DNA of 64,000 bases, taken from the IMG/VR virus record IMGVR_UViG_3300023178_000038; one strand, 5' to 3'. The DNA comes from an uncultured virus (IMG/VR IMGVR_UViG_3300023178_000038) (taxonomy: Duplodnaviria > Heunggongvirae > Uroviricota > Caudoviricetes). The notes beneath the pieces are model-generated. The model searched no databases, was not told where the DNA came from, and saw only the letters and a program-made list of their open reading frames with translations. Shown here one piece after another: positions 1-63,958 of this stretch (the stretch's first letter is position 1; every line of letters starts with the position of its first letter). The position numbers and the translations under genes were made by a program.

Positions 1-4
1 AACA

Positions 5-45: not shown

Positions 46-61
46 TTAATAATTAGTAGGA

Positions 62-1108: not shown

Positions 1109-1136
1109 GTTTAAATGTGCCTTTCTCTCTTACGAG

Positions 1137-4479: not shown

Positions 4480-6317
4480 TAATATTGTCCACTAAATGTC
4501 CTACTTATTCTATCATACATAGGATCTCTTTCTTTCTCTTTTGTTTGCCCTGATGTCAATGTTTTACCTAATGTATCTTCAATAGGTACATAGCCAAAAC
4601 CTGTAACTGCACCAGTATCGCCTACTTCACTTATAAGTTTGCCTGCTTTTTTTAATACTATATCTGTTGGTGATACAGCTTCTATCCAATCTAATGATTT
4701 ATTTACTCTTTGCCAATCATATTCGTAATCGTCTAAATTTATTTTATATCCTGCTGCGCCTGCCATAGTTTCCAACATATTGTTTGCTTGGTTTTTTACA
4801 AATGTATCTATGTCTGGTGCAAAACCATACGCTAATCCTGCAGTCATAACAAATGTTTCATAGTAATCTAATGCTTCCATAATAGCTGCACCGATAGGTC
4901 CACCTGCTAATGGATTTACTACTCCTAATCTTTTACCTAAATTTTTACCTCTGTCTGCTATTCTTTTTTTAGCTTTTTCTTTAAGTGTTTGTTCAGGATT
5001 TATAATGTTTATAATTTCATCTGACAATGTGTTTATGTTGCCAGTGCCTTTAACAGTGGGAATAACATTATCATTTAAAAATAATATACGTGCGTCTTTT
5101 GACGTAGATACAGTTCTGTCCATGTTTCTCATGCCTGACATAATGTAATCACTTTCTATATGTTTAGTAACATTTTCAGGTATATCCAATACCTGTGTTG
5201 TGTCAACATCACTATATAAATTAAGTGGTTTCATAAATGTCTCTGTTTGTTTTCTATCTACTTCGAGTTGAAACTTAATTTGATCTGTTGTATTAGCAGG
5301 TTGTATATCTACAATGTCTCCATTTAATATAATATAACTTTTCTGACCTTTATCTTCTACAACATTTGTATAAGACAGCATGTCAGCATTACCAAATTCA
5401 TCTAAAAACTCACTGCCGTTGTATAAATTTTTTGATTTAGCTAATGCTTGATTTGGACTGATAATACCATCACGTACTTGGTCTGCAGTTGCAATGTCTA
5501 ACTCTGCAATAAAACCACCTGCACTAACACCGTTCCAATCTAAATTGCCATCATATCCTGCAACATATCTTTGTAGATTATTTGCCATATTATCAGCGTC
5601 AGACAAACGGATATGTGTACCATCAAAAGCTAGATATACTTCACCAATGTCTTTAAATTTAGCTTGCACTGCTTCTGGTTTCATAGTTATTTCATACAAA
5701 ATATCATTTGTAAAATACTCTGGTGCGTTTAATTTACTTTGACTTTTTATCCAACTATCAAATTGTGGTCCAGAATATACCTCATCAACTTGTCCTAATT
5801 CATCGAAATCAACATAAGCATATTCTTGTGTCTCAATAATATCTGGTTTCCTGCCTTGCAATGTGCTTCTTATTACGTCATCAGACCAAAATAATCTCAT
5901 TGTAGCTCTATCATCTTCCATAAAACCCATTATTCTAACTTCGTGTATGTATGGTTTATCTGTATTTAATTTATAAAAAATACTTTCATCATAAAATAAA
6001 GGATTTGATCTGCTACTATCAAATGTTTTTTTATAGTCTTCTGCTGCAATCATGAAATCACTACTGTAATTTTCTAATTTATCATCAACATATTGTCCTG
6101 CAGTTTTAATAATTTTATTTATATTGTCATCACCAAAAGTTCCTGCTCTTCTGTCTACAGCAGCATTGTATGTACCAACGTGAAATCCTATATCGTAATT
6201 TATATTATCTGCTGCTATTACGCCTTTTGGTCCTTTTATAAAACCACCTGAACCATGATATAATTTTTTTGGTGGCAAATTATCTGGTACTGGTATTTGT
6301 TCAACCATTTTTACCAA
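4479..6317 (-). CDS. Putative internal virion protein with ADP-ribosyltransferase-like motifs (start possibly 6308)
   Basis: LYHGS...GFHVGT..AA..R and D.LSYTNVVEDKGQKSYIIL resemble ART-like domains of phage polyvalent proteins. Confidence 0.5.
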   Translation of the reverse strand: MVKMVEQIPVPDNLPPKKLYHGSGGFIKGPKGVIAADNINYDIGFHVGTYNAAVDRRAGTFGDDNINKIIKTAGQYVDDKLENYSSDFMIAAEDYKKTFDSSRSNPLFYDESIFYKLNTDKPYIHEVRIMGFMEDDRATMRLFWSDDVIRSTLQGRKPDIIETQEYAYVDFDELGQVDEVYSGPQFDSWIKSQSKLNAPEYFTNDILYEITMKPEAVQAKFKDIGEVYLAFDGTHIRLSDADNMANNLQRYVAGYDGNLDWNGVSAGGFIAELDIATADQVRDGIISPNQALAKSKNLYNGSEFLDEFGNADMLSYTNVVEDKGQKSYIILNGDIVDIQPANTTDQIKFQLEVDRKQTETFMKPLNLYSDVDTTQVLDIPENVTKHIESDYIMSGMRNMDRTVSTSKDARILFLNDNVIPTVKGTGNINTLSDEIINIINPEQTLKEKAKKRIADRGKNLGKRLGVVNPLAGGPIGAAIMEALDYYETFVMTAGLAYGFAPDIDTFVKNQANNMLETMAGAAGYKINLDDYEYDWQRVNKSLDWIEAVSPTDIVLKKAGKLISEVGDTGAVTGFGYVPIEDTLGKTLTSGQTKEKERDPMYDRISRTFSGQY

Positions 6318-7245
6318 ACCATTTATTAAATTTCTGTATTACTGCATTTCCTAAAACACCGTGTTTTGGTGGTTTTTCTCCTGGTGCTAAACCTAGTATC
6401 TCATTTATTTTATTTTCGTATGCTATACCTAGTTCTTCCATTTTTGTTAAAAAACCTTCTAATTTATCTTTTTCTTTTTTTGGATTTGGTGGTGTGTATA
6501 TATCAAATGGATAACCTGCCTGTGTTTTACCTGGCATTGTTGTGGTTGTAGTTGTTGGTAAATTTACAGGTCCCATTGTTGTAGTTGTTGGTATATATTG
6601 TGAATAGTCAAATAAAAACTCTTCTTCATCTACTAATCTATTTTCTAAACCTTTAATAACATTAGGATCACTTTCCGCTATTGTTTTTGCCATAAGTTTT
6701 GTAATAGTATTTCTATCTCTTTTACTTACAGCTTCGTACAGTGATTTACCTACTATGTCATTACCTCTGTTAAATGTAGCAATAATTAAATAATCAAACT
6801 CTCTTTGTGATAATGGCGTATTGTAATTGACCATACGATTATAAACATTCTTTTCAAACTCTTGTAAATCTTGTACTAATAATTCTTCAGCTTCTTCTGC
6901 TGTAATTACCATGCCTTCTTTTACAGGTACACCACTACTTCTACCTGTATGTCCGTAACCAATAGTCCAATTACCTGCACCATCATCATACGCTTCTAGT
7001 TCTATTTTTTCTTTATCTTTTAAAAAGTCAATAGCAGCTTGTGATGTTTTGTGTTCTATAATTTCAGTTTCGTCTTGTGGTACTTCGTTATTAAAAACAC
7101 CTATAGGTGATAAATAATTTACTTGTCCTGTATAGTCAGATACATCAACCACTAGCCAACCTGGACATGCTATCAAGAGTGCCAAACAAGTAGCTAAGAT
7201 CATTTCTTTCCTTTGTTGCTTGCTCTGTTGCTCGTACCTCTGCAC
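6301..7245 (-). CDS. Virion-associated GH24-type lysozyme (true start probably GTG near 7152)
   Basis: DFLKDKE..ELEAYDDGAGNWTIGYGHT, FNRG, GLENR motifs. Confidence 0.85.
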   Translation of the reverse strand: MQRYEQQSKQQRKEMILATCLALLIACPGWLVVDVSDYTGQVNYLSPIGVFNNEVPQDETEIIEHKTSQAAIDFLKDKEKIELEAYDDGAGNWTIGYGHTGRSSGVPVKEGMVITAEEAEELLVQDLQEFEKNVYNRMVNYNTPLSQREFDYLIIATFNRGNDIVGKSLYEAVSKRDRNTITKLMAKTIAESDPNVIKGLENRLVDEEEFLFDYSQYIPTTTTMGPVNLPTTTTTTMPGKTQAGYPFDIYTPPNPKKEKDKLEGFLTKMEELGIAYENKINEILGLAPGEKPPKHGVLGNAVIQKFNKWFGKNG

Positions 7246-8842
7246 CTAATACACTGTCTGCATACTCTTGCAAACTAGCTTGTGGTGCTTCAGGTACTGT
7301 CAAATTCTTATCTGCACCAGGAAACATACGTTGTGCTAAGTCATAATTCTTGTTAAAGTTAGCAACTGCAGTTTCATAGTCTTTACTTGCTTCAGTATAG
7401 AAGTCTGCAAAAGCTACCATCTCTGCTTCTGATAATTCTCTATCAATACCTATTGCACTTAACGCACCATCTATTTCTGCTTTTATTTGTGTAGGGCTTG
7501 GCTCTACAAATACTTTAGGAAGTAATGGTGGTCTCTTGTATAGTCTTGCTTTCTCTTCTGTTAGATGTGTTCCAATATCTGCTAATTCATAGTTAGCATT
7601 AGTCATGGCTTCTAGCATAGCTCTTTGGCTTGCTGATCCCCAACTACCTTGTTCAAAAAACCATTCGTCATAGGTTAAGTAACCTGCTTGTAATAAATCT
7701 GTTTGTACTGCTAATCTCTCTTGTGGCAACATGTTGTAACCAATTTGTATGTGATCTTGCCCACCATACTGTTTAGCTGCTTGTTCTTCTGTAAGTGTTA
7801 TTGTCTCTGCTGCTAAATCACCAGGTGTAAGTTCTTTGCCTTCTTCAAATACTGCTGCTAGGTCTGGATTTTTATATACTGTATATCCAGGAGTAATACC
7901 ACCAAATAATCCGTAACCTGGAATATCTACTTGATCTGATAATGCAGCTTTAGCTTGTTCTACTGCAGCAGCTTCTTGTGTTCTTATTAATGTATAACCA
8001 CCATCAAGTTGACCTTCTTCTAGTGCTATATATTCACTATCTGAAACTGTAAGTTTTTCTATTTCAAGAGTTTCGTTATTTATTTTTGTTATCTGACCAC
8101 CTGCTTGTTCAACAGTCTTGTATGTATTGTCAGATATATCTTTTACTCTGTTGTTATACTCACCACTAAATTCATATTTACCTGGATCACCAGACATTAT
8201 TGGTTCATACAAAACAGTTGGTTGTGTTCTAAATCCTTTTTTAGGTACTTTTGTTCTACCAGGATCAGTCTCTCTAAATATTTGCATAGTGTCTTCTGGA
8301 TTGTCATAATTCTTTTTGTATCTGTCATATTCACCAGATGAAAACAATACAACACCTTTACCACCGCCTGGTTTAACTAATGCACCAATTTGACCTGTAG
8401 CGTCATACCATTCATCTAACTTATCTACAAGATAATCAAAATACTCTTGGCTCTCTTCTGCTGCTTTTATACCTGCAGAGACATCAAGTCCTTCTAATAT
8501 GTCTGCACGTACGTCAAGTGGTGTATTTACTAACCATGCTGTATATTGTCCAGGTGCGTAACCTGCGTTTCTACCTTCTAATTCAACACTTGCAATAGCT
8601 TCGTTAAGTGCGTTAGTCATAACATTCTTAGTTGTTCTGTTTATACCTAATCCAGTTTCAGCTTGTCTATTTAAACTTTGATCGTATATAGCTAATGCAG
8701 TATTTACTTTTGCAATAAACAATGCGTCTGATATGCCTTCTTTAACAAGACCATTCAATTCTTTAGCAAATTCAGCGCTATCGTCTAATTGTCTTTGCGC
8801 TTTAATACTGTCTACGAGTGCTTGCTTATATTCTTCTGTCAC
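7145..8842 (-). CDS. Putative internal virion protein
   Basis: 565 aa; QTDLLQAGYL...GSWG peptidoglycan-binding-like stretch; homologue 52070-53869. Confidence 0.55.
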   Translation of the reverse strand: MTEEYKQALVDSIKAQRQLDDSAEFAKELNGLVKEGISDALFIAKVNTALAIYDQSLNRQAETGLGINRTTKNVMTNALNEAIASVELEGRNAGYAPGQYTAWLVNTPLDVRADILEGLDVSAGIKAAEESQEYFDYLVDKLDEWYDATGQIGALVKPGGGKGVVLFSSGEYDRYKKNYDNPEDTMQIFRETDPGRTKVPKKGFRTQPTVLYEPIMSGDPGKYEFSGEYNNRVKDISDNTYKTVEQAGGQITKINNETLEIEKLTVSDSEYIALEEGQLDGGYTLIRTQEAAAVEQAKAALSDQVDIPGYGLFGGITPGYTVYKNPDLAAVFEEGKELTPGDLAAETITLTEEQAAKQYGGQDHIQIGYNMLPQERLAVQTDLLQAGYLTYDEWFFEQGSWGSASQRAMLEAMTNANYELADIGTHLTEEKARLYKRPPLLPKVFVEPSPTQIKAEIDGALSAIGIDRELSEAEMVAFADFYTEASKDYETAVANFNKNYDLAQRMFPGADKNLTVPEAPQASLQEYADSVLGAEVRATEQATKERNDLSYLFGTLDSMSRLASG

Positions 8843-11800
8843 GCTTCTCCCTGCTGTACGGGCAAATATGCACCGTATTCTAACATTGTATCATAATCGT
8901 ACTCCAAATCCTCTAAGAACTGTGTTCTTTCTTGGAATAAAGGTAATAGTAAGTTTTGTGCTATTACGTAAAAGTCATCATTACTAACAGATATTTGACC
9001 TATAAAATCTCTAAGTTGTTGTCTTTCAAGTAACATTGTACGTGATGTACGCCAACCATTAGCTGATAATCCACGACCTAATGATTTCTTTTCTAGTATT
9101 TTTATATAATCTAATACTTGTGCAACAGCTTGTCCTGTTTCTGATCCACGTAATTTAGGTTCATCTTCCCATCTTTTAAGTTCATCAAATTGTTGATCTA
9201 ATGTACCTCGTTGTGGTAGTCCTGGTATTGTTGTGTCAAATCCAGGAAACCTTTGTGCTGCTACATTTCTTTTAACAGCAAGTAATCTACTTCTCTGTTT
9301 TGCTTGGTATGGATCAGTAATATCAAATTGTTGTAATGTAGCTATACGCTCTTCTTCCATATAGAACTCACCTAATCTTTGGTTACGTGTAGCAACCCAT
9401 TCTTCTGGTGTTAATGGTTCTCTTTGCTCATTGTATATAGTTCTTGTATATGCTTCGTAATCAAAAGCACCACCACCGCCATTAGGTACAGCGTAAAATG
9501 CAGTAAGTTTATATTCATCAAATAACTCTGGATTTTCTTTTTCAAACTGTACACCACGTTCATCTACTGGTCTAGGTTCTACAACAATAGATTTAGGTGT
9601 AGATATATCTAAAGGATTAAAACCAAATTCATCTATAAAATACTTAGTTGCAGAATAGTTATCACCTGGTGCATATAAGAAATCACCGCTAACTGGATCT
9701 TTAGGTGGTGTCTCTATAAGTTCTCTGTATCTATCTGCAAGTATTTGCATAGAGTAAAGCGATCCTGCATTTCTTGGATCACCTATATCAAAACGTGGAT
9801 TTAATCCTGTAGGACCAACAAACTGTGAAAATGCTTTAATCATAGTTAAATTTTTACCAATAGAACGTGCCTTCTCTAATAATCTTTGTTGTGCTTCTGG
9901 CGTCATATCATCTTCACCATTAGCTTTTAATACTCTATATACATCAATAGTTGTGTTAGCAGCAATACGTGATAACTCACCTGGTGCTGCGTCTTCATTA
10001 AATGCAAACATTGCACGTCCTGCATTTTTTAACCACGCAGGTACACCTGCTTCTTGTACTAAATCACCAATATTTTTTACTCTTGGTAAACCGTATGGAA
10101 ATAAAAACTTTTGTGTCTCTTCAAATTTAGGTGTACCTTCTAGTACAAATGACGCAGGTATAGCTGCTACTGGACCAATACCAGGCACAACTTCTAATGC
10201 TAAGTTAAGAGAACCTGCATATCCTGGTAATCGTACACCAACATTTCTGTCTGCACCAAACAATGCGTCAGATACTAACTCATTAACTATTGGATAATAA
10301 AATACTTCTTCACCAGTTATTTCATCTTCAGCTAAAAATCCTTCACCTTCTACAGGACTAAATGGATTTTCGTCTCTAAGTGCTTGTACTGTTACTTGAC
10401 CTCTTCTAGCTATTTCTGGATTTTCTTTTAATAATTTTGCCCATGTAGTTAATATTTCTACGTATGCTTCACCAAAAGGAAATATACCTCTAAGATTGTA
10501 GGTTATCTTACTACGTTTACTTAGATCGTAAAGTAAGTCTTGTAGCTCTGACAATGCAATAGATTTAGCAAAATTGTCAATATATTCTGCGTCTATAAAG
10601 CCATCATCAAAACCTGCAAGAGTTCCTAGATATTCTATTTCTCTACCTTCTTCTGCTGTGTAATTATCTAAATCACGAATAAGATCATCTTTTTGTTTTG
10701 TTAATGCTTGTATTTCATCTTCGTCTATAGCATTAGCAATTTTGTCATCTATATCGTCTATTTCTGCTTGACCTTTTCTTCTAACTTTTTGTAAGTCATT
10801 TGTCATCTTTTGTATTTCATCTGTGTTGTCTACAAACTTAGTTCCTAGTTTTGCGTCTGCTTCGTTTAATTCTTTTACTCTACGTTCAAACATATCTAAA
10901 TTTATTTCTGTATCTGCTTTACGTAGTTTTTGTGCAGGTAAACCTATATCAGCTTTTATACTGCTTAGTAAATTTTCGTTAGGTATATTAGATTTTCTTG
11001 CACCAGACACTTTTATTGTTTTACCACCTGCTCTATAATTTTTACCTTCTAATAAAACTGTACGCATAGCAGGTGTCATACGTGGTAGTAAGTCATAAAC
11101 TGCACGCCAATATGCTTGTCTAAATACTGGTGATCTTGAAGCGTTATCTGTACGTTGTCCCATAATAACGTCAAAGCCATTTTCTATAAATCGTTCTAAC
11201 CATTTACTATCATCTAATAAAGTACCTTCTATAGGTGCTGTAACAAGTTCTGGTAAGCTATCTCCATATTCTTCTATAATTGTGTCGTAATATTTATTAG
11301 CTGCTTTACGCATAGACTTGTCATCTAGCTTTGTAAAACCTTTTCCAAATATTGCAAACAAATCATCTAATGTTTCTATACCAGTTAAACCATCTAATTC
11401 AGGAATAAAATATTTCATCTCACCACCAACTTCTATAGTTTCTGTAGCTTGTTTAATTTGTTGCGGTGTAGGATTATTTATCCATACGCCTTTATCGCTT
11501 TCTTTTGCAATCTTACCTAATTTACCACTTATCATCATGTCGTATAAATCTTCATTACGTGGTCTATCTATACGCAACGGAAACGGATTTTTACTAAAAT
11601 CTATTTCATCAAAATCAAATTTATTTAATAAATCATCTAACACTGCAAGGTCTTCATCAAAAGCACCGCCTGCTACTTGCTGTAACCTAGCTTCTACAGA
11701 TTTAGCGTAAACATATCTACCACCTGCTGTTTGCATAATATCTTCATATCTTGATCCACCTTTTGCATACTCTTCTATTACTTTTTTAGCTGCAGGACTT

Positions 11801-14316
11801 TCGCCTTTTACCCATTCTTTTAATTTGTTTTGTCTTGCTACTGGATTGTTTTTACCTTTAAATAACAATTCGTATAAATCATCTTGATATATTTTTGCTA
11901 CTTCATTTGTCCATGCTCTTACAAATTTATTTGCACTTGCTTTATCTCCTGCATTTAGTCCTGCAAAAGATTGTGTTTTTTCTAATATATCGTAATCATG
12001 AGGTCCTGCTTTTTTACGCCTACCTTGTTGTCTTCTTTGTGATCTTTGCGCACCACCAAATGCTTCGTCATTGTTGTTAGCACCACGCATACGTGAAGAT
12101 CCTTGTTTCCACTCTAAACTTTCTGCTAGTGGATCTCCAAACAAATCTTTGAACTCTACATCTTTTTGTGTCCATCTTTTTGCTTGTGCAGCGTCTGTTT
12201 TTTTAAGTAAAGATAAAGAAATTAAAGACAATGGTCTTGAAAATATATTGTCATAACCTCTTGTATACATACGTAGTTGTTCTTCTCCAACTACACGTAG
12301 CAACCATGCACCACGTAACAATACAGCAGGTTTCCAAAACTCTGTGTAATACCAATCTATATTTTTACCAACAATACCTTTTTGCATTGACTTAGGATAT
12401 TTTCCTATAAAATCATCAAATGCTTTTGTACCGCCTAATTTATTTCTAAGTATTGACATAGAGTTCATAGCTTTAGCTAGTTGTCCTGCGTCTGGCATAG
12501 GTATAGTTCTATTAATAAATTCTGTAGTAAGATGTGCGTCTGCTATTGGTCTCATTTTACCTTCTACTACAACTGGTTTCATTTTCATACCTGCATGCCT
12601 AACATTCTGACCTGTGTATGCGTCTATAAAGTATTTACGCATGTCATCAAATGTTTCACTAAATATACGTGTAAATGCTGCAGCGTCTCTTGCGTCAACT
12701 TTATAGTTATCTACTAAGTCTTTACCTACCTCATCTAACATTTCAGTAGCAATTCTGAATAAACCTGCTTGATCACCATTTTCTAATACCATAGCTTCTT
12801 TTAATAATCTGTCTTTTGTATTTCTGTTTAAATCAGAATTGTCTAACCATTTTTTTATTTCATCAAAAGATTGTTCTATATTTTCGCTATCTAAATAACG
12901 TGCAGGTAAATCTTTAGTATAAGTTGCCATAATACGTGCAGCTCTACTATTGCTATCCATCATTGACAGTTTTACAACTTTTTTTGCACCAAACAACTGA
13001 CCTGTGCCTTCAGGTACGTTTTTAGATATTGCTTCTGTTGCACCGCCTAAAAATCTACCTATTGCACCTACAGTAGGTTTTGTTGTTCCAAATGGTAAAT
13101 CTCTAAAACCTATAGACTGATCTACGAGTTCTGCCATATTTATAACTTTTTCGTCTGCTGTCTTAGTAAAGTCTTGTGATATATTCATAAAACGTTGTAC
13201 TACTTTTGGATCTGTTATGCCTGTAATATCCATAAACTTGCTTTCTGATTGCAAATTAGATAAATATTTTACAAACTTCATACCGCCTGGATCTTTGTTT
13301 AAATAATCTGTAACAGATTTAGGTGACAAAAACGGTAATCCCCAACCTCTTTTAACTAGACCTAATTGTGCTTTTTCTGCGTCTGTAAACTTTGTATCAG
13401 TTTTTTTAATCATGTTTATAAGGTTGTCACTAGGTGCAAGTGTTTTTCTTGATTTAGCTAATGCGCCTGCGCCTAATGTAAGATAGTTTGCAGGATCTAA
13501 AAACAATGCTTTACCTGCGTCTAATAATCCTGATACAACGTTAAAACCTTTTGTGCCAGGTTCTGTCATACCTAATGCAACTGTTCTACCTAAAGATATA
13601 GGTACAGCTACTTCTTCACCAGTTCCTAATTGTCTTGTAATAGTAAACTGACCACTGTCTTCTTGCATACGTCTATCTATTTCTGTAATAGCAGAACCTA
13701 ATTGATTTTGTATAATGTTTTGCGCACGTGTATTGTCAAAACCAGATTGTATAAGATATTTATATTCGTCATAATATTTACTGTTTGGATTGTCTGGATC
13801 AAATACATCAGAGTTTGGTAACAAACCGTCACCTAAATTAACCTCTTTACCTTGTGCTAAATTACTAAACACTTGTCTAACGGTTGATTTACCTGACTGC
13901 TTGTATGCGTCTGCAAATGTAAGATCCTCTGCTTTGTCACCTATAGTTGCAGCAATCATAGAGTTAATTGGTCTATCTACAGATGTTCTATATAAATCTT
14001 CTAAAGCAAGTAATCCAAATCTAACTGCACCTTTTAATGGATCGAATACTTTATCTACTAATGATTTTTTATTATGTTCTAATATTCTTTCTGACAATGT
14101 ACGCAAAACTTCTGCTTCTGGTTTTACTTGTAGCATTGTAAGAGATGTAATAACATCTGGTGAAAAGTTAGGATACAACTGTGCTATTGCTGTTGCACGT
14201 TGTGCGTCTTCTTTTGTTACACTAGCTTGCGCTCTGTTCCATTGTGTTTTTCTAGCTTGTAACTCTTTATATAAGTCTTGTTCTGACTTAGGATTGTCAA
14301 AATGAAATACACCCAT
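8839..14316 (-). CDS. Large internal virion (ejection) protein
   Basis: 1825 aa helical protein after portal; homologue 53869-59253; size and position as podovirus ejectosome proteins. Confidence 0.65.
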   Translation of the reverse strand: MGVFHFDNPKSEQDLYKELQARKTQWNRAQASVTKEDAQRATAIAQLYPNFSPDVITSLTMLQVKPEAEVLRTLSERILEHNKKSLVDKVFDPLKGAVRFGLLALEDLYRTSVDRPINSMIAATIGDKAEDLTFADAYKQSGKSTVRQVFSNLAQGKEVNLGDGLLPNSDVFDPDNPNSKYYDEYKYLIQSGFDNTRAQNIIQNQLGSAITEIDRRMQEDSGQFTITRQLGTGEEVAVPISLGRTVALGMTEPGTKGFNVVSGLLDAGKALFLDPANYLTLGAGALAKSRKTLAPSDNLINMIKKTDTKFTDAEKAQLGLVKRGWGLPFLSPKSVTDYLNKDPGGMKFVKYLSNLQSESKFMDITGITDPKVVQRFMNISQDFTKTADEKVINMAELVDQSIGFRDLPFGTTKPTVGAIGRFLGGATEAISKNVPEGTGQLFGAKKVVKLSMMDSNSRAARIMATYTKDLPARYLDSENIEQSFDEIKKWLDNSDLNRNTKDRLLKEAMVLENGDQAGLFRIATEMLDEVGKDLVDNYKVDARDAAAFTRIFSETFDDMRKYFIDAYTGQNVRHAGMKMKPVVVEGKMRPIADAHLTTEFINRTIPMPDAGQLAKAMNSMSILRNKLGGTKAFDDFIGKYPKSMQKGIVGKNIDWYYTEFWKPAVLLRGAWLLRVVGEEQLRMYTRGYDNIFSRPLSLISLSLLKKTDAAQAKRWTQKDVEFKDLFGDPLAESLEWKQGSSRMRGANNNDEAFGGAQRSQRRQQGRRKKAGPHDYDILEKTQSFAGLNAGDKASANKFVRAWTNEVAKIYQDDLYELLFKGKNNPVARQNKLKEWVKGESPAAKKVIEEYAKGGSRYEDIMQTAGGRYVYAKSVEARLQQVAGGAFDEDLAVLDDLLNKFDFDEIDFSKNPFPLRIDRPRNEDLYDMMISGKLGKIAKESDKGVWINNPTPQQIKQATETIEVGGEMKYFIPELDGLTGIETLDDLFAIFGKGFTKLDDKSMRKAANKYYDTIIEEYGDSLPELVTAPIEGTLLDDSKWLERFIENGFDVIMGQRTDNASRSPVFRQAYWRAVYDLLPRMTPAMRTVLLEGKNYRAGGKTIKVSGARKSNIPNENLLSSIKADIGLPAQKLRKADTEINLDMFERRVKELNEADAKLGTKFVDNTDEIQKMTNDLQKVRRKGQAEIDDIDDKIANAIDEDEIQALTKQKDDLIRDLDNYTAEEGREIEYLGTLAGFDDGFIDAEYIDNFAKSIALSELQDLLYDLSKRSKITYNLRGIFPFGEAYVEILTTWAKLLKENPEIARRGQVTVQALRDENPFSPVEGEGFLAEDEITGEEVFYYPIVNELVSDALFGADRNVGVRLPGYAGSLNLALEVVPGIGPVAAIPASFVLEGTPKFEETQKFLFPYGLPRVKNIGDLVQEAGVPAWLKNAGRAMFAFNEDAAPGELSRIAANTTIDVYRVLKANGEDDMTPEAQQRLLEKARSIGKNLTMIKAFSQFVGPTGLNPRFDIGDPRNAGSLYSMQILADRYRELIETPPKDPVSGDFLYAPGDNYSATKYFIDEFGFNPLDISTPKSIVVEPRPVDERGVQFEKENPELFDEYKLTAFYAVPNGGGGAFDYEAYTRTIYNEQREPLTPEEWVATRNQRLGEFYMEEERIATLQQFDITDPYQAKQRSRLLAVKRNVAAQRFPGFDTTIPGLPQRGTLDQQFDELKRWEDEPKLRGSETGQAVAQVLDYIKILEKKSLGRGLSANGWRTSRTMLLERQQLRDFIGQISVSNDDFYVIAQNLLLPLFQERTQFLEDLEYDYDTMLEYGAYLPVQQGEA

Positions 14317-14319
14317 GTG

Positions 14320-14784
14320 TTATCCGAATTGTTGTGGCGTTCTATTTATTTTTTGTTCCGCAAACTGTAATAAACTTATAAGTTCTGATGAAGGATTTAT
14401 TTGTGCCATTGCCCTAATTAACATAACATCATCTGGTTCTAATAAGCTACTTTCTTGTGCTTGCATACTAGATGGTGTATTTATAGGTGTACCATCACCT
14501 TGTGCAAATATATCACCTACTGCTGGTGGTAAAGGTTGTAATTCTTGTTGTGGTTGTTCTGCAGGTGCAGCAACTGTTGCAGCAGGTTGTTCTACGTTAC
14601 CTTGCCTTACTTGTTCTACAAGTGCTTTTTCTTCTCCTGCACTTTCAGTAACCATACCTCTAACATCTTCTATGCTAGGTGCTTGACCATCAGTTCTCCT
14701 TGCAAGTCTTCCTGGTCCAGAAACAGCAGCAGGTCTTTTTACTCCACCTCTTCTGCCACGTTCTCTACTACTACCATTCGCCAT
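14320..14784 (-). CDS. Conserved hypothetical protein (basic N-terminus, PAAVSGPG motif)
   Basis: Homologue 59253-59708. Confidence 0.65.
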   Translation of the reverse strand: MANGSSRERGRRGGVKRPAAVSGPGRLARRTDGQAPSIEDVRGMVTESAGEEKALVEQVRQGNVEQPAATVAAPAEQPQQELQPLPPAVGDIFAQGDGTPINTPSSMQAQESSLLEPDDVMLIRAMAQINPSSELISLLQFAEQKINRTPQQFG

Positions 14785-15016
14785 TCATATCCTCCTGTTT
14801 TCCAAACCAAATTAACAGACCATTAGGTATATATTGAACTACCATGCCTTGTGGCATATCTGTAATTACTGGCTCTTCTGCATACATTTCATCTTCATGG
14901 TCTGCTATAGCTTCTTCAGTTTTTTGCCATACATCTACTAAACAGTTATTTACTATTTCACTAAATTTGTAATTGTTAACTTCTCTTTCATTGAAAGAAT
15001 TAGCCACCTTGTACAC
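14771..15016 (-). CDS. Conserved small acidic hypothetical protein
   Basis: Homologue 59692-59922. Confidence 0.6.
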   Translation of the reverse strand: MYKVANSFNEREVNNYKFSEIVNNCLVDVWQKTEEAIADHEDEMYAEEPVITDMPQGMVVQYIPNGLLIWFGKQEDMNGEW

Positions 15017-16757
15017 CTCCTAGTAATAACGATCGTATATCTGGTGCAGGTCCTTGTGGCACTGGTGCTTGTCCGCCACCTAATGCTTGCTCTAATAATG
15101 CAGCTTCATTTTCTGGTACCTCTGGTTCTTCTGCTGTGTAAAACTTGTCAAGTATAGATTGCATAGAGTTTGGATTTTTATATATCTGTACAAGCGCCAT
15201 AGTTGCTTTAGGATCGCCTTGACTTGCTTGCACTTTAAGTGTCTCAAACAATGTACGTTCTGCTTCGTCTTTTAATATTCTATCGTTAATCTTTTGTACG
15301 TTATCTAGTCCGTCCATGTTTTCTTGCAAAGTCTCTTTGTCTATAATACCTGCTTGTAATAATTGTAATCCAGAGACAATCTTTGTTGGTTCATCAAAAC
15401 CTGCCATTACACCATACACACGTCTAGTCTTGTACATACCTGATATGTCTGCGCTAGGTGTATATTGTTCTGCAAACGCTGTGCCTTTTAGAAATCCTGC
15501 TAATGGTTTTTTACTATTGCCATTAAGTGCTTCGTCCATCTCTAAACGTTTATAATCAATTTCTTCTATTGCTGTTTTTAATGCTAACTGATATTCTTTT
15601 ACGTTTAGATCAACAGACGATAGTAACTCTTGCAATCCCCTACCTGTTACAAACGAGTTAGGAGATATAGCGTCATCACTGACTGGATAACTAGAACCAA
15701 CACGTAATTGTCGTTCTATTCTGTCTATTTGTGTAAATAACTGATACGGAACATTGTTAGGTGGTTTAGCAACTTGTGAACCAGGTGTTAAGTAATTGAC
15801 TGCAAATCTACCACGTTTGTAGTTCCCGCTCTCTAATTCACCAACGATATTCGTTTCTGTAAATACACTATCTTCCATAGCAATTATGGATAAGACGTTA
15901 ATCTTTGCCATAGCTGCCATCAAACCTAATACATGGTCATATTGACCTGTTAGTCTGTCAAAACTAAATCTCTTTGATATAACAAAGCGAGGTCCTGACT
16001 TTAATGGATTTGGTGTAAAATCTAATATTTGTTTTGTATCTGGTAAAAATACGTATGTACCATCTTCGTCATAGTATTCTACTAATTCTGTACCATCAGC
16101 TAAATGGTTATCCCAACTTCTTTGGAAACCATCATGGTATTTAAACTTACTATATCCAGAAGGAAACTGACTGCTTTCATCTATAGCAACGTTTGCTTGT
16201 GGATACATTTGTTTTATAACTGCATTAGGAACAAGTCGTATTAATGCAAGTTCTTTTGGATCTTGGTCAGGTCCATAATATCCTGGATAACAGTCATACG
16301 GATCTCGTAGTTCTGCATGAGGATACATTACGCCATCTGGTGACATCTTCTGTCTTATAATCCATACACAGAAACCATAACCAGGTAGCCATCTTGCTGC
16401 CTGTGGTAACTGCATATCCATCTTAGAGTAACTGTCTAAGTTAGTTACAATACGCTCTAATTTTTCTGCTTTGTTTTTAGCACGTTCACTGTCTGCATAC
16501 TGATCAACTTTGATGTCGGGCATACGTCCTAATTTTTGTGCTAAGTGTTCTAATCCTGAATTTATAAGATTAGGTACAGGTAAATCTATATCATAGTTTT
16601 TTGCGCTCTCACCTAACAATGCTGCTATACCATTGCTTCCACCGTTCATAATAGAACGAACTCTATCACGATACTCATAGTGTCCACTATGTTCGTGCAT
16701 GCCTTTTAAGTCGTCTGTTTTAATTAATAATTCGTCAGGTGTTAAAACCATTACCAA
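15000..16757 (-). CDS. Portal protein, copy A
   Basis: 585 aa immediately after terminase; near-identical homologue 59906-61660. Confidence 0.8.
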   Translation of the reverse strand: MVMVLTPDELLIKTDDLKGMHEHSGHYEYRDRVRSIMNGGSNGIAALLGESAKNYDIDLPVPNLINSGLEHLAQKLGRMPDIKVDQYADSERAKNKAEKLERIVTNLDSYSKMDMQLPQAARWLPGYGFCVWIIRQKMSPDGVMYPHAELRDPYDCYPGYYGPDQDPKELALIRLVPNAVIKQMYPQANVAIDESSQFPSGYSKFKYHDGFQRSWDNHLADGTELVEYYDEDGTYVFLPDTKQILDFTPNPLKSGPRFVISKRFSFDRLTGQYDHVLGLMAAMAKINVLSIIAMEDSVFTETNIVGELESGNYKRGRFAVNYLTPGSQVAKPPNNVPYQLFTQIDRIERQLRVGSSYPVSDDAISPNSFVTGRGLQELLSSVDLNVKEYQLALKTAIEEIDYKRLEMDEALNGNSKKPLAGFLKGTAFAEQYTPSADISGMYKTRRVYGVMAGFDEPTKIVSGLQLLQAGIIDKETLQENMDGLDNVQKINDRILKDEAERTLFETLKVQASQGDPKATMALVQIYKNPNSMQSILDKFYTAEEPEVPENEAALLEQALGGGQAPVPQGPAPDIRSLLLGGVQGG

Positions 16758-18667
16758 AAAACCTCGTTGTATTCACTCTGCTTATAATAGTTATAAGAAG
16801 GAGTATAGTCGCTCTCTGCTTCAGCTAACATCATTTTTACGTTTGTGCGTATACGTTTCATTGGAAACCAACTTGCCATAACTAAGTCAGTTTTTGTTTT
16901 AACATTACGTGAATTACTTGCACCTGCTTGTGAAAAATATATAAGCTGTTGTCTAAAAATATTTACTTTACGTTTTGTTGCAGCGTCTCCCCATGCTAAA
17001 TTTATCTTTTGGTTTTCATACATACCTACCATACTGGTAACACCGAATGTAGGATCCCATTTGTTTTTATAGGTTTGATGTCCTTCTATTCTGACACCGT
17101 GACTTGCTGCCCAGTTACGTATATCTCTGTCTTGTCCTATAGCACGTTGAAAACCGTTTTCTTCTACTATCCAATGTGATAACCAATACTTGTCATACCA
17201 CTCTTTCATTAATGCGTGTGCTTTTTGTATACCACCGCCTTGATCGTTTTTTATATCTACAAGCCATACTTGTTGTGTTTTTACATTATACGCCCATAAC
17301 ACTGCTGCCTGGTATCCCGTACTTGCGGGATCTAATCCTGCAATAAGTGTTGTATGTGGTGGTATGTCACCTAACTTACGTGATGGATCTAAACAACTAT
17401 CTACTGCTTCTGCTGTAAACAAACTCATACCGTCTGGTATAGCTTTGTTAAGATAGACCATTTCAAATATATTTCTACCACCTGTTGTCTCTGCTGCAGC
17501 TAATTGTTCTAATAACCATTTATGAGAACGCTTGCCTGACCATAACATGTGTTCTGTATGGTCTATAGTTTCATCTTCTAGTGGTACTTCTAAATCATGC
17601 GCACGGTCTACAATACTTTCCCATGCTTTGTTTTCTAAGAGGTGATGGTATAAATCGTCTGGGTGCTGTCTTGATCCAATGACGACCATTCCTGTATGTT
17701 CCTCTTTTCTTGACTGTAGCGTTGTGGTCCACCAGTTCCTGGTGTTTTCTCTAGCACTTGGTTGCACAGTGCTTCCATGATCTTCGATGTCGTCTGCAAT
17801 AATAAGGTCTGCGTCTCTGGAAAGGATTTTACCTCCTTTTCCAATTGCGACAAGAGTTGGCGACTTAATACCAGAGACTGTTCTAGTTGCAACAGTAAAT
17901 TGACTGGACGACCAACTTTTTCCTGAACGATTAGCAGGTCTAAATCCGTCCCAGTCTCCGTAATCTTGGATAAGTCCTTCATTATTCTCCAAATGGTCTA
18001 ATACCGCACCAACACTGTTCTTTGCAATATCCTCGTTACCACCGCACCACATGATACGAATGTTAGGATTTTTACATATCATGTATACGCAAAAGTGTGT
18101 TAACAAGTCTGTTTTACCATGTCTAGGTGGTGACAGTATCATTAACCTGTTCCCATGTTTTATACTATCTAAGATAGCACCAATCCACTTCTTTTGAAAG
18201 TCAGGTGTTTCATAATTCTTACCTTGTTCTGTTAAAAAGTAATCATCTCTAAATTTTACAAAGTCGTCTACGTCCGCTTCCTGGATTTCCCCCACAACCG
18301 CTTTTGTACGTTTTTCGTACTCTGCTTCTTTTGCCATATCTTCTACATACGCTGCCATAGCCCTACTAACAGTTGCTTGGCTACAGTTCAGTATGTCGGC
18401 AATTTCTTTTTTAGTTTTGCTACCTGATAAAATGTCGTTAAAAAAATTTTTTTTCTTCATAATGGCGTAGTAGTCTCCCCTACGCTTCTGTATGTTTGGA
18501 TCTACGTCTTTTACAACCTGTATATCTTTTGCACTCTTCTTTGCCCTATATGCCCTCTTCTTTACTCTGTTAGCGCACTTGTCGCTACAGTATTTTTGCC
18601 TACCTTCTGGTAAAGGGGACACACAATCAGAAGCTGTACAAAGTGTGTTTTTTTCTTTATTTGACAT
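16751..18667 (-). CDS. terL: Terminase large subunit with N-terminal Zn-ribbon and HTH, copy A
   Basis: Walker A SPPRHGKT, Walker B LIIADD, nuclease GLDPA; start MSNKE chosen by alignment with copy B. Confidence 0.92.
   Translation of the reverse strand: MSNKEKNTLCTASDCVSPLPEGRQKYCSDKCANRVKKRAYRAKKSAKDIQVVKDVDPNIQKRRGDYYAIMKKKNFFNDILSGSKTKKEIADILNCSQATVSRAMAAYVEDMAKEAEYEKRTKAVVGEIQEADVDDFVKFRDDYFLTEQGKNYETPDFQKKWIGAILDSIKHGNRLMILSPPRHGKTDLLTHFCVYMICKNPNIRIMWCGGNEDIAKNSVGAVLDHLENNEGLIQDYGDWDGFRPANRSGKSWSSSQFTVATRTVSGIKSPTLVAIGKGGKILSRDADLIIADDIEDHGSTVQPSARENTRNWWTTTLQSRKEEHTGMVVIGSRQHPDDLYHHLLENKAWESIVDRAHDLEVPLEDETIDHTEHMLWSGKRSHKWLLEQLAAAETTGGRNIFEMVYLNKAIPDGMSLFTAEAVDSCLDPSRKLGDIPPHTTLIAGLDPASTGYQAAVLWAYNVKTQQVWLVDIKNDQGGGIQKAHALMKEWYDKYWLSHWIVEENGFQRAIGQDRDIRNWAASHGVRIEGHQTYKNKWDPTFGVTSMVGMYENQKINLAWGDAATKRKVNIFRQQLIYFSQAGASNSRNVKTKTDLVMASWFPMKRIRTNVKMMLAEAESDYTPSYNYYKQSEYNEVFW
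17635..17982 (-). CDS. Candidate overprinted gene nested in terL (alternative frame, 115 aa)
   Basis: Same start, stop and length at 62538-62885; GGAG-AATA-ATG RBS; locally suppressed synonymous change. Confidence 0.45.
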   Translation of the reverse strand: MKDLSKITETGTDLDLLIVQEKVGRPVNLLLQLEQSLVLSRQLLSQLEKEVKSFPETQTLLLQTTSKIMEALCNQVLEKTPGTGGPQRYSQEKRNIQEWSSLDQDSTQTIYTITS

Positions 18668-18689
18668 ATCTATATGGTATAGTGTAGCA

Positions 18690-18910
18690 TACAGGAACAA
18701 GCATTGTGGTATTCCTGCCTATACAAGTACCACAAGTTCAGGATCTCGTTTAGAAGGTTGGATTAGCAGGACCGCCTTAGTCGTGGGTTGAGCCACATTC
18801 CTCACATTTTATTTATTAGAGAGAGAGCAAAAACGTTACTACACTTAATAAACTGGTTTGGGTTGGGAGTGACACAGGGTTAGCTACACCTACAACGACT
18901 ACTCGACTGT
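18690..18910 (+). ncRNA. Conserved structured RNA with covarying hairpin and probable pseudoknot
   Basis: Stem 18704-13/18726-35 with compensatory and wobble changes vs 63598-607/63620-29; loop CCTGC complementary to GCAGG 18766-70; upstream TGnTATAGT. Confidence 0.65.
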
Positions 18911-18934
18911 AAGATTACAGATATTAGTGCGACT

Positions 18935-18982
18935 GCACTATATCTTGTAATATACCACATATAGTACCACTATATATAGTAT
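18935..18982. promoter_or_regulatory. Three NrdR-box-like palindromes overlapping a TATACT -10 (18980-85)
   Basis: GCACTATATCTTGTAA, ATACCACATATAGTAC, CCACTATATATAGTAT vs consensus acaCwAtATaTwGtgt; outer boxes 32 bp apart. Confidence 0.6.
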
Positions 18983-18991
18983 ACTGTCTAC

Positions 18992-19072
18992 GGGGGTGTT
19001 TTAGATCGCAGTTAGATGTTTGTTCCAACCTTAACTAACTCAACGCAGGTGCAAATCCTGCCACCTCCACAA
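18992..19072 (+). ncRNA. Minimal tmRNA-like / tRNA(Ala)-like RNA without mRNA-like domain, copy A
   Basis: GGGGGTG/CACCTCC acceptor stem with G3-U70 and A73; T-arm GCAGG-TGCAAAT-CCTGC; helix AGTTAG/CTAACT; no D-stem; -10 box 6 nt upstream. Confidence 0.8.
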
Positions 19073-19301
19073 ATTACCACATAAACATTGACGTATTCAT
19101 ATACATTTCCGCACGGCTTCGGTTAAGGTATGGGGGTTATATATATGCGTGTGTTATGCGTGTGCGGTTGTATGTTGTGCTATGCGCGTGTTCGTCTACG
19201 TTGTGCGCGCGTCTGTGTTGTTATGCGTTCGCAAGTCTAACCGCATACTATTTTTTAAAAAACTAACGGGGATCCATACAAAACGAAATACGATTTTACA
19301 T

Positions 19302-19329
19302 AAAGAAAAAGCGGGCTACTTGTCCCGCT
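19302..19329 (-). terminator. Intrinsic terminator ending the early-gene block
   Basis: AGCGGG/CCCGCT stem then TTTTCTTT on - strand. Confidence 0.8.
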
Positions 19330-19353
19330 CTCTCTCTGTTGTTGTGTTACTGG

Positions 19354-19545
19354 TTAGCCGTAGTGTTCTTGATAATAATTTAATTCTATTGCTTGATTAT
19401 CAATAATACTCTCTAACTCTAATTTGGTTCGCTCTAGTGTTTTTTCTAATTCTCTAATGCGTTTTTTTAATGCGTAACTATCCGCCATTAGTCCCGATAG
19501 ATACCACGCAAAAGCAATTAAAAACAATAATATAATTACATTCAT
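19354..19545 (-). CDS. Small membrane-anchored coiled-coil protein
   Basis: N-terminal hydrophobic helix; TAATG coupling. Confidence 0.6.
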   Translation of the reverse strand: MNVIILLFLIAFAWYLSGLMADSYALKKRIRELEKTLERTKLELESIIDNQAIELNYYQEHYG

Positions 19546-19874
19546 TATTTATACATATCCATTCCCCAGTCAATCTGGCGCTCTTTGTCATATTCGCTAT
19601 AAGTCTCATAACCGTTATAGCCGTAACTCTTACGTTTAATATATTTATTCTTTAAACCTTCTATAAACCATTTAGGTTTGATATATAAATATAATTTAAG
19701 TTTAAAAAATATAAATTTAGGTAATAAATAAATAAAAATAGCTAAACCAAACAAGCGCCATTTATATTTAAAATGCTTCAACCGATTAAAAAACCTTAGC
19801 AATTTATTAAACTTTGTCCAATTAAGTCCAAAGTAGTCAAGCATATAACTATTACAATTATCTATTAATTTCAT
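19545..19874 (-). CDS. Hypothetical protein (start MKLIDN)
   Basis: GGGAAGG RBS before the internal ATG of the 19545-19931 ORF. Confidence 0.55.
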   Translation of the reverse strand: MKLIDNCNSYMLDYFGLNWTKFNKLLRFFNRLKHFKYKWRLFGLAIFIYLLPKFIFFKLKLYLYIKPKWFIEGLKNKYIKRKSYGYNGYETYSEYDKERQIDWGMDMYK

Positions 19875-19954
19875 TGTATTTCCTTCCCGTATACATAAGC
19901 TAATTATATAACCATGATCCGTATAAAACAAGTATCGATTTTAGATATATATAG

Positions 19955-19994
19955 CAAAAACCCGCTAAGACTATCGGGCGGATACCTAGCGGGC
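19955..19994 (-). terminator. Probable intrinsic terminator
   Basis: CCCGCTA/TAGCGGG stem followed by TTTTT on - strand. Confidence 0.55.
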
Positions 19995-20049
19995 TTATTG
20001 CTTGTGCGCTATTTACATACGTATAAGGGCTACAATGAAGCGCACATAA

Positions 20050-20508
20050 TTATAAATGGCTATGTCTAATCATATACCCCGCGCGGTCAATGTCACTCTC
20101 TAAGCCACGAAATAAAATTATCCCCAACGTATAAACCATGTGGAAAACCATATCCATTCCAGTTCCATGCACGCGTAAAATATTCCTTCCATACTTGTCT
20201 TGCTTCGGCTCTCTCTCATCTATAACCCAACTCATTAAATAAGTAATGTCTAAAATTTCGCTTCCGCTAGCCATGTGAAAACTAATTTGTCTATTCATTC
20301 CGTTAGGGCTTACCCGTCTAACTAAGCCGTGTATTACTGGCTTAGTGTCTGGCGCTTCCCAATTACTTTCTTTTACATGTTCCGCCAGTTTTATGCCGTT
20401 CCAGTCTTTGTAATCATCTGTATACACTTTAAAATTAGTATCAAATATTATATTAAATAATTGCACTTTACTTAATTCGTGTTGTTGTTCTTTAGTTAAT
20501 GTTTTCAC
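20050..20508 (-). CDS. Conserved phage hypothetical protein
   Basis: 152 aa; VRRVS.NGM.R.ISF...V.G.GMDM.FH.VY motif that I associate with phage early proteins. Confidence 0.7.
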   Translation of the reverse strand: MKTLTKEQQHELSKVQLFNIIFDTNFKVYTDDYKDWNGIKLAEHVKESNWEAPDTKPVIHGLVRRVSPNGMNRQISFHMASGSEILDITYLMSWVIDEREPKQDKYGRNILRVHGTGMDMVFHMVYTLGIILFRGLESDIDRAGYMIRHSHL

Positions 20509-20690
20509 GCTATCCCCTTTAAATGTTTTTTAAATTGTCTTTTAGCTTCTTGTATTCCATAACCGATATAAACTTGCTTGTTTGCAAAGTCATTCGCGTC
20601 ATGTAATATTAAAGCGCCATTAATTTTATTTTTATATACTGTTATTTCATTAGTGCTAGATTTTTCTAGCCGTTCTGGATATTCCCACAT
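20505..20690 (-). CDS. Hypothetical protein
   Basis: GGGAAGGTGATAAC RBS before ATG 20690. Confidence 0.55.
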   Translation of the reverse strand: MWEYPERLEKSSTNEITVYKNKINGALILHDANDFANKQVYIGYGIQEAKRQFKKHLKGIA

Positions 20691-20920
20691 AGTTATCACC
20701 TTCCCGTAATAAATTAATTACTTAATTATTATTTATAATCTTTTATTTGTCAAGGATATACAAAACCCCGTAATAAATAAAACCAGTAACAACAAATATA
20801 AAACCTATAACCCCGTAAAGCATAATTAAAGTTTTCATTTTCTTTTATATTTGTTATACATATTTAATTTAAAAATTCTAAAAGGTAATTTATATTTCCA
20901 TATTAAAAATTTAATTCTAT

Positions 20921-21217
20921 TCATAATGATCCTTTAGTGCGTAATTTCGGTTTTAGTCTAGCCCATACCGACTTTAGCTTGCTCTTGTTTTGTGTTTCAA
21001 TATATATCTTTGCCCAACTAAGTCCCGCTACATATCCCGCGTCATAGGATAAGTTGCAGTCCAGTGCTTCCCATTCTCCAACTGCTTCTAATACTTCGTC
21101 CGCAGTATCAAATTTCTCACCGTCAAACTCATAATCATAATGTCCGTCTTTGTTTTCACTATCAACACGTTCTTTTACACTAGCTATATCTTTATCAATT
21201 ACTTTTAGTATGTCCAT
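20921..21217 (-). CDS. Hypothetical protein
   Basis: 98 aa, GGAAGGA RBS. Confidence 0.6.
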   Translation of the reverse strand: MDILKVIDKDIASVKERVDSENKDGHYDYEFDGEKFDTADEVLEAVGEWEALDCNLSYDAGYVAGLSWAKIYIETQNKSKLKSVWARLKPKLRTKGSL

Positions 21218-43473: not shown

Positions 43474-43498
43474 ATAAAATGACTGTTTTAGATTTTTT

Positions 43499-63871: not shown

Positions 63872-63878
63872 GTAGACT

Positions 63879-63958
63879 GGGGGTGATCTGGACAGGGTTA
63901 AATGCTTATCCAAATACTCATCTAACCAACGTGGGTTCGACTCCCACCACCTCCACAA
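63879..63958 (+). ncRNA. Minimal tmRNA-like / tRNA(Ala)-like RNA without mRNA-like domain, copy B
   Basis: GGGGGTG/CACCTCC-A; T-arm GTGGG-TTCGACT-CCCAC; helix GGTTA/TAACC then AAC linker. Confidence 0.85.

Follow-up and report, generated by a model that had tools for sequence, protein, structure and literature searches.

A probable phage gene for a transfer-messenger RNA reduced to its tRNA-like domain

Nearly all bacteria have trans-translation, a process that phages either depend on or suffer from. Our subject is a short RNA gene that occurs twice in a 64,000-nucleotide (nt) stretch of DNA from an uncultured member of the Caudoviricetes (IMG/VR record IMGVR_UViG_3300023178_000038), a stretch that we analysed at its full length and call the window. 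Very probably the element is a real, conserved phage gene, a homologue of transfer-messenger RNA (tmRNA) pared down to the transfer RNA (tRNA)-like domain (TLD). That identity rests on tmRNA homology, on compensatory base changes, on an invariant alanine identity set and on the lack of an integrase among the open reading frames (ORFs). We also lean towards a fuller statement, probable in our judgement but with real room for doubt, that this tag-less mini-tmRNA is charged with alanine, bound by SmpB and lowers ssrA tagging. An initial annotation, made from the letters alone, had already proposed the tRNA-like domain of a tmRNA without its message, and an alignment to the Rfam tmRNA family with the interior skipped, the covariation and the identity set all bear it out. 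Its implied novelty was overstated: a ‘TLD only’ tmRNA, that of mycobacteriophage DS6A, was already in print, as excerpts of two papers show (PMC4131195; PMC11915505).

The two copies lie on the + strand, copy A (81 nt) at 18992..19072 and copy B (80 nt) at 63879..63958. Both were delimited from the sequence, a covariance model (95 and 93 bits, respectively) and a table of helices, copy B also from its alignment to the Rfam tmRNA family RF00023. Each opens and closes with the strands of a 7-bp acceptor stem, GGGGGUG/CACCUCC (18992-18998 with 19062-19068 in copy A, 63879-63885 with 63948-63954 in copy B), which contains the pair G3-U70. Discriminator A follows (19069; 63955) and then CAA (19070-19072; 63956-63958), giving a 3' tail of ACAA in both copies in which CCA is not encoded. 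There is no D-stem. An unpaired stretch of 10-11 nt replaces the D-arm, at 18999-19009 in copy A, where it contains UAG and lacks GG, and at 63886-63895 in copy B (AUCUGGACAG), where it has GG. Next comes a central, closing helix, AGUUAG/CUAACU in copy A (19010-19015 with 19035-19040, loop 19016-19034) versus GGUUA(A)AUG/CAU(C)UAACC in copy B (63896-63904 with 63919-63927, one mismatch, loop 63905-63918). A linker of CAAC (19041-19044) or AAC (63928-63930) leads into the T-arm, GCAGG-UGCAAAU-CCUGC in copy A (stem 19045-19049 with 19057-19061, T-loop 19050-19056) versus GUGGG-UUCGACU-CCCAC in copy B (stem 63931-63935 with 63943-63947, T-loop 63936-63942). The initial annotation had listed the acceptor stem with G3-U70 and discriminator A, the unpaired 5' loop, the closing helix, the short linker and the CAA end, and all can be read in the sequence of both copies. 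The + strand is the meaningful one, since G3-U70 and a G-U closing pair found in one type of relative (type C, below) would be mismatched on the other strand and the T-loop consensus UUCGAnU is legible only on this one. Pseudoknots and a tag reading frame with resume and stop codons are absent from the 80-81 nt element. Small ORFs that cross the inner loop and the GT-rich trailer keep neither frame nor start codon between copies or lineages, and we rejected a tag frame in either place on the ground that frames are not conserved between lineages.

The element is a constant feature of its phage lineage. Relatives were gathered as 75 IMG/VR loci fetched by their terminase protein (78-100% identity). 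The covariance model, built from 17 distinct variants, gave 59 matches over the window and these loci: the two in the window and one each in 57 loci. Those 57 are all the loci in which 450 nt or more precede the terminase start; the remaining 18 of the 75 are without that DNA. The covariance-model search that the initial annotation had called for thus found the element in every related locus that includes the region. Run with filters off on the 64-kb window, the model picks out only the two sites; the next best match has 12 bits and an E-value of about 1. All but one of the 57 copies are intact. The lineage holds 18 distinct sequences, which fall into five types (A to E). The acceptor stem is invariant in the 17 intact variants, always with G3-U70 and discriminator A; of the outcomes that the initial annotation had set against its own proposal, neither homologues folding as cloverleafs nor the loss of G3-U70 was seen in these variants.

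Elsewhere the RNA changes by compensation. The annotation had noted the exchange of GCAGG/CCUGC for GUGGG/CCCAC between the two T-stems, and across the 18 distinct sequences, aligned to the model, both partners change in three of the five T-stem pairs, with 98.9% of cells paired. The forms GCAGG, GUAGG, GUGGG, CUGGG and UUGGG each occur with their complement, and one contig from an RNA library adds a further doubly compensated T-stem, GUGGG/CCCAC in a type A background. No shuffle out of 500 and no slid control reaches the covariation score observed. The central helix, for which the annotation had given AGUUAG/CUAACU and GGUUA/UAACC, is also compensatory across types. It reads AGUUAG/CUAACU, AGUAAG/CUUACU, AAG-A-UAG/CUA-A-CUU or UGUUAGAU/AUCUAAUA, and in a further type GGUUA-n-AUG/CAU-C-UAACC, with GUG/CAU in one variant. 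We tabulated this helix per type by script; MAFFT alignments shift its 3' strand by one base in types B and C, and the figure of 71% paired that they give for it is therefore too low. Without any structure being supplied, RNAalifold predicted both the acceptor stem and the T-stem, as well as the outer portion of the central helix.

The tie to tmRNA is most direct for copy B, which scores 44.7 bits against RF00023 (cut-off 47; E 1.3e-16 with 501 nt searched) in an alignment that spans model positions 1-374 and skips 301 interior positions. A sister variant of type C (L021), which stands for 11 loci, reaches 52.6 bits and so passes the cut-off; three other type B variants score 38-39 bits. The detectors that the initial annotation had suggested gave a divided answer. 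ARAGORN reported 0 genes and no cloverleaf in the window and called none of the elements in 20 loci tested, DS6A included, and Rfam at its gathering thresholds found nothing in the window; relaxing the thresholds brought up copy B as tmRNA. Since ARAGORN calls none of the tested elements, routine annotation can miss them. Two other identities were considered and rejected. For a canonical tRNA-Ala, ARAGORN sees no cloverleaf, copy A at relaxed thresholds matches the Rfam tRNA family with 22 bits where the cut-off is 29, and the helix table gives inner loops of 14-21 nt versus the 7-nt anticodon loop of tRNA-Ala. For a two-piece, permuted tmRNA, there are weak matches of 17-27 bits to RF04321 and alpha_tmRNA (cut-off 47 for RF04321), which arise because a T-arm, an acceptor 3' strand and a downstream GGGGGUU occur in that order. 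Past that motif an alignment of 13 sequences from the lineage shows only hypervariable sequence and nothing resembling tmRNA.

Short forms of this kind reach well beyond the lineage. A first pattern scan of IMG/VR, which combined the acceptor strands of the window with a T-arm at a spacing suited to an RNA of 80-90 nt, found at least 120 loci and at least 84 distinct sequences, most from other phage lineages. Twenty of these loci were sampled: 18 match tmRNA at E <= 0.001, 11 of them above the cut-off. When 70 short forms were aligned, all four Watson-Crick pairs appeared at two T-stem positions with none broken, and most of the viral forms carried an inner (U/G)AAA(G/A)CC hairpin, a class feature described in this analysis and not a published criterion. 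A second scan left the acceptor stem unspecified and asked for UCGAC, 20-45 nt, GGAC and a T-arm. It too found at least 120 loci, and among the matches listed there are 26 acceptor-stem combinations, the window's own being one, of which 23 form seven pairs and 24 have G-U at 3:70; discriminator A is present in 120 of 120 of these matches and an encoded CCA in only 35. Across the class, positions 4-7 drift by compensation and G1, G2, G3-U70 and A73 stay fixed. Alanyl-tRNA synthetase recognises its substrates by G1-C72, G2-C71, G3-U70 and A73. This alanine identity set is under selection, and its fixity while the rest of the stem drifts is the strongest indirect sign of alanine charging. As to where these RNAs are encoded, the cultured Streptomyces phages LuckySocke and Shaeky have copies in unannotated gaps within arrays of tRNA genes (L320:2496-2576 and L321:2501-2570). 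Among 52 loci scanned from uncultured lineages, 9 place the short form between the prohead protease and major capsid genes and 8 beside genes of PHROG 8424/7813. Two other RNA-like matches turned up near mini-tmRNAs of other lineages: a type II hammerhead ribozyme (44.1 bits, cut-off 37; L207:199-263, - strand) at a distance of 1.2 kb, and a sub-threshold Y RNA-like (YrlA) match (L227:212-320, + strand) 270 nt upstream.

The element is a new, divergent member of the DS6A-type, TLD-only tmRNAs. Hudson, Lau and Williams list ‘Mycobacterium phage DS6A (TLD only)’, tmID 11587 of the tmRNA Website (PMC4131195), and excerpts of that paper and of the 2025 tmRNA database paper state that a DS6A-like molecule inhibits tmRNA strongly, ‘perhaps acting by titrating SmpB’ (PMC4131195; PMC11915505). 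The database paper repeats the DS6A entry and adds forms without a coding sequence (CDS) in mitochondria and two plastids (PMC11915505). In the literature searched, DS6A is the only phage short form named. Its element (JN698994, 28478-28560) scores 43.2 bits against RF00023, next to 44.7 for copy B, and is unannotated in GenBank. The primary paper on inhibition of tmRNA by a DS6A-like molecule is reportedly Mao et al. 2009. The likeness runs through the whole molecule. Both RNAs are phage-encoded, about 80 nt long and missed by ARAGORN. In both, discriminator A follows a 7-bp acceptor stem that contains G3-U70, a D-loop analogue replaces the D-arm, a short helix closes the domain and there is a T-arm; neither has a tag frame or encodes CCA (DS6A ends in ACUA). 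The window element lies in a phage context, with genes for a terminase, an SU10-type capsid protein and further phage functions. The differences lie in detail. DS6A has the acceptor GGGGCCG/CGGCUCC, a GUCGAC motif, a GCAC linker and an inner GAAAACC hairpin, whereas in the window RNAs the inner loop has GUUUGUUCC or GCUUAUCC, the linker is CAAC or AAC and the T-loop of copy A has G in place of U. The DS6A gene is also co-directional with its neighbours, gp33 and the DNA polymerase III gene, while the window gene points away from all genes.

Other relatives are more distant in organisation. The GGGGGUG/CACCUCC acceptor, the T-arm and the AUCUGG of the D-loop analogue in copy B match the bacterial tmRNA consensus (RF00023), and the same acceptor and T-arm are found in the tmRNAs of many phyla; what the window element lacks is the roughly 300 nt of pseudoknots and tag frame, the UCGAC/GGAC motifs and the encoded CCA. 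The second T-loop position, G in copy A, departs from the tmRNA consensus UUCGAnU, to which copy B conforms. The CDS-less tmRNAs of jakobid mitochondria and Mallomonadaceae plastids, compared by description only, are natural homologues consisting of the tRNA-like domain; those of plastids are about 65 bp, and excerpts of the database paper take both kinds still to act with SmpB (PMC11915505). Unlike the window gene they are organellar, kept by reduction alongside an SmpB partner, and neither viral nor host-directed. Marine phages such as Methylophilales phage Melnitz encode two-piece tmRNAs, a family that shares with the window the order of T-arm, acceptor 3' strand, spacer and GGGGGU, but, to go by excerpts of their description, these are complete and have a tag frame, and the window element scores only 17-27 bits against a cut-off of 47 for that form (PMC9004378).

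In front of each copy lies a box that may serve as its promoter. That of copy A, ACTATATATAGTATACTGT (18968..18991, + strand), contains a -10-like TATACT at 18980-18985, 6 nt before G1 at 18992; that of copy B (63854-63878, + strand) has TATACT at 63866-63871, 7 nt before G1 at 63879, both spacings being those given by the initial annotation. An exact 13-mer of this box occurs at only these two sites in the window, and in the 13-sequence alignment the box hardly varies, unlike the diverged interior of the RNA. Behind the RNA stands a second box, AAATTACCACATAAACATTGACGTATTCAT (19073..19102, + strand), kept in all 13 aligned lineages and separated from the RNA by a 9-nt insertion in type D variants. 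This box may belong to the RNA as its trailer or a region for its processing, or it may be where a promoter for the opposite strand lies. Some 60 nt downstream of the RNA comes the motif GGTATGGGGGTTA (19127..19139, + strand), whose GGGGGTT is invariant in 13 of the 13 sequences. A GT-rich, nearly A-free stretch of about 100-130 nt (19140-19235) follows, hypervariable between lineages, with indels, and framed by the conserved motifs GGGGGTTA (19132-19139) and TATGCGTTCGC (19222-32). Read on the gene strand, it is rich in C and A and poor in G. It contains no conserved frame that we could find, and many related contigs stop within it, 100-550 nt past the RNA gene.

How such an RNA would work can be set out as a chain of steps. 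It would be transcribed on the + strand from the conserved TATACT box, with its 5' end at or near G1 and its 3' trailer trimmed back to the discriminator, and a host nucleotidyltransferase would complete the CCA. The invariant G1-C72, G2-C71, G3-U70 and A73 would make it a substrate of the host alanyl-tRNA synthetase, and SmpB (and EF-Tu) would engage it as they do the tRNA-like domain of tmRNA. Having no message, it may either titrate SmpB away from the host tmRNA or enter stalled ribosomes and donate alanine without a degradation tag. The initial annotation had put forward both of these, and a decoy besides, as possible functions. By either route ssrA tagging would be suppressed during infection.

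Several observations weigh against this account. One copy in the lineage, that of locus L067 (2115-2197, - strand), is broken by a deletion of about 40 nt that takes away the 3' strand of the T-stem, the 3' strand of the acceptor and the box behind the RNA; either at least one genome can do without the gene or the contig is misassembled. The 17 intact variants end in ACAA (12), ACUG (4) or ACCA (1), leaving CCA unencoded outside the last. The TATACT box has no match to a -35 element, and a scan with the sigma-70 consensus calls no promoter there. Two of four RNA-library runs cover the element, with contigs at 18889-19052 and 18869-19108 and a depth of about 2 each. These contigs carry neither strand nor ends, and carry-over of DNA is possible; they cross the supposed transcription start from 120 nt upstream and so do not establish a discrete transcript from G1. 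The gene is antisense to any leader of the late operon, which would fit a regulatory role too. Folding-energy z-scores of -1.7 and -1.8 for the single sequences are unexceptional, and copy A and its relatives with the T-loop UGCAAnU find no RF00023 match at E <= 1. At the base of the closing helix the window copies lack UCGAC and GGAC, reading GAUCGC or GGACA and CAAC or AAC instead, and in types A, D and E the second base of the T-loop is G and not U, with UAG replacing GG in the D-loop analogue.

An RNA-processing or regulatory element would accommodate some of these points. The tRNA-like fold would then be an RNase P or RNase Z-type cleavage signal for a GU-rich trailer of about 190 nt, or the gene would exert antisense control over the terminase and late genes, and alanylation and SmpB would be irrelevant. 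That the gene sits between conserved boxes and antisense to the late-operon leader suits such a role, as do the RNA-library contigs that span the element together with upstream DNA; the short forms that other lineages place in head-gene operons (the 9 and 8 of 52 loci above) resemble tRNA punctuation. A bare signal, however, needs the fold and not G3-U70 and A73, which stay fixed while positions 4-7 covary. We found neither a conserved frame nor a conserved structure in the hypervariable trailer, and the copies in the tRNA arrays of cultured phages point to a tRNA-like product. We consider this explanation improbable.

The missing helix-base motifs and the altered elbow call for a closer look, since they bear on whether SmpB is the partner at all. 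Among bacterial tmRNAs that share the acceptor stem and T-arm, 104 of 121 carry GGAC ahead of the T-stem, and UCGAC is present in 60 of the 66 for which the full-length 5' end was found. With these motifs absent from the window copies, the contacts with SmpB may differ. Viral short forms keep the last two linker bases (AC) and vary the first two. The inner (U/G)AAA(G/A)CC hairpin is absent from the window lineage, whose loop has GUUUGUUCC or GCUUAUCC instead. The elbow is altered in a regular way. Over 89 distinct sequences (the window, the lineage loci and the IMG/VR short forms of the first pattern scan), all 78 with GG in the D-loop analogue have U as the second base of the T-loop and all 11 with UAG have G there, and the UAG/G form is also found in two contigs with other flanks and other interiors. 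In tRNA, G18 and U55 make a tertiary contact. The association between D-loop and T-loop is a candidate for covariation of that elbow pair; perfect as it is, it may rest on only two or three evolutionary events, which makes it a lead and not a proof.

These departures can be counted in favour of a tRNA-like decoy or donor that has nothing to do with SmpB: bait for nucleases or defences that sense tRNA or tmRNA, or a supplier of alanine to some other aminoacyl-tRNA-dependent enzyme. Such a molecule would keep the alanine identity set, as this one does, could dispense with the tmRNA helix-base motifs, and could tolerate an elbow that has been remodelled in half of the lineage (UAG/G 11/11 against GG/U 78/78). 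Defence systems with SmpB-like domains that are predicted to bind tmRNA do exist, according to excerpts of their description (PMC11090510). But the RNA descends clearly from tmRNA and not from tRNA-Ala, no defence or anti-defence gene was recognised beside it in PHROG and Pfam searches of the window ORFs, and one published test of such a molecule, as excerpted, reports inhibition of tmRNA (PMC4131195). The decoy or donor strikes us as unlikely, and an alanine-charged, SmpB-bound mini-tmRNA remains the reading that we prefer.

The genome around the gene is that of a tailed phage read more than once. Comparison of the window with itself matches 1-19108 to 41662-63994 in the same order at 70-92% identity. 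From this ordered match and the doubled sets of late genes we take the window to be about 1.4 turns of one genome type of about 44.9 kb, the two turns coming from different relatives. Another IMG/VR record (G001) is identical to 1027-28376 and crosses the junction at 19108 without interruption. A chimeric wrap-around assembly or a concatemer of two strains could be behind the layout. The two mini-tmRNA copies stand 44,887 bases apart, at the equivalent place in each turn, in an intergenic region of about 850 bp that runs from the terminator of the last gene to the terminase gene, and on the strand opposite to every gene there. That terminator is a putative one, a hairpin GCGGG/CCCGC with a T-run at 19302..19328 (- strand, the gene strand) that would end the preceding operon and bound the intergenic region; in the 13-sequence alignment its position is kept and its stems vary. 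On the other side the large terminase gene (16751..18700, - strand; copy B 61654-63561; PHROG 38, E 2e-67) is the first late gene and diverges from the RNA gene. Each of the two late sets includes an SU10-type major capsid protein (62-1108 and 41723-42769, PHROG and Pfam matches), and an endolysin is among the late genes. Between them lies a single block of early and replication genes with an exonuclease, a RusA-like resolvase, a SET domain and DUF5675, and a homologue of PHROG 8424 is encoded as well. The region 17000-21000 has no blastn match among GenBank phages, and the terminase protein is at most 28% identical to those of cultured phages, which leaves the phage without a cultured relative.

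That the element acts as DNA, as an attP core derived from host ssrA or a packaging or replication site, is very improbable: the tmRNA gene is a common integration site whose fragments phages carry (excerpts of PMC9004378), the element lies just upstream of the terminase gene and many related contigs break 100-550 nt downstream of it, but no integrase or excisionase was recognised among 53 ORFs with PHROGs or 41 with Pfam, an attP would need only the 3' part of ssrA whereas this element retains, with covariation, its 5' acceptor strand, D-loop analogue and closing helix as well, and other phages have the short form at quite different genome positions.

Some further features of the window deserve a record. 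The leader of about 290 nt upstream of the terminase gene (18700-18990) contains strongly conserved blocks and a small hairpin, for example at 18772-18790, that is compensatory between lineages (GUGG-GUUGAG-CCAC, GUCC-GUUGAG-GGAC, AUCC-GUUGAG-GGAU) and is probably a second structured RNA or a protein-binding site. Conserved non-coding stretches of 250-350 nt lie at 1583-1937 and 43248-43499, between the PHROG 8424 gene and a gene for a 148-aa protein upstream of the capsid gene. This is where some related lineages have their mini-tmRNA; the mini-tmRNA model, run with filters off, finds no match in either stretch. All long ORFs are on the minus strand except a tryptophan-halogenase-like gene (34615-35706, + strand), which falls in the part of the window with the lowest GC content (27%). 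Its homologues in our search are environmental proteins only and give no clue to the host.

A small phage-borne RNA that blocks or re-routes trans-translation would be a compact device for taking over a host. The kind had been published for one mycobacteriophage; here it is in an abundant lineage of uncultured salt-marsh and marine phages, and it occurs further in many other viral contigs (at least 120 loci per scan) and in the tRNA arrays of cultured Streptomyces phages. It is possible, though we would call it doubtful, that tag-less mini-tmRNAs are a widespread and almost wholly unannotated phage tool that is charged with alanine and acts with SmpB to take over or shut down ribosome rescue, and that the window lineage has given its version a promoter of its own antisense to the late leader, rebuilt the elbow and replaced the inner arm while keeping the function. 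Were that so, this lineage of marine podophages would be a natural experiment in what SmpB and alanyl-tRNA synthetase need. The finding is valuable mainly for the breadth of the class and for the natural variants of the lineage, whose compensatory changes and remodelled elbow would make them ready-made mutants for tests of recognition by alanyl-tRNA synthetase and SmpB.

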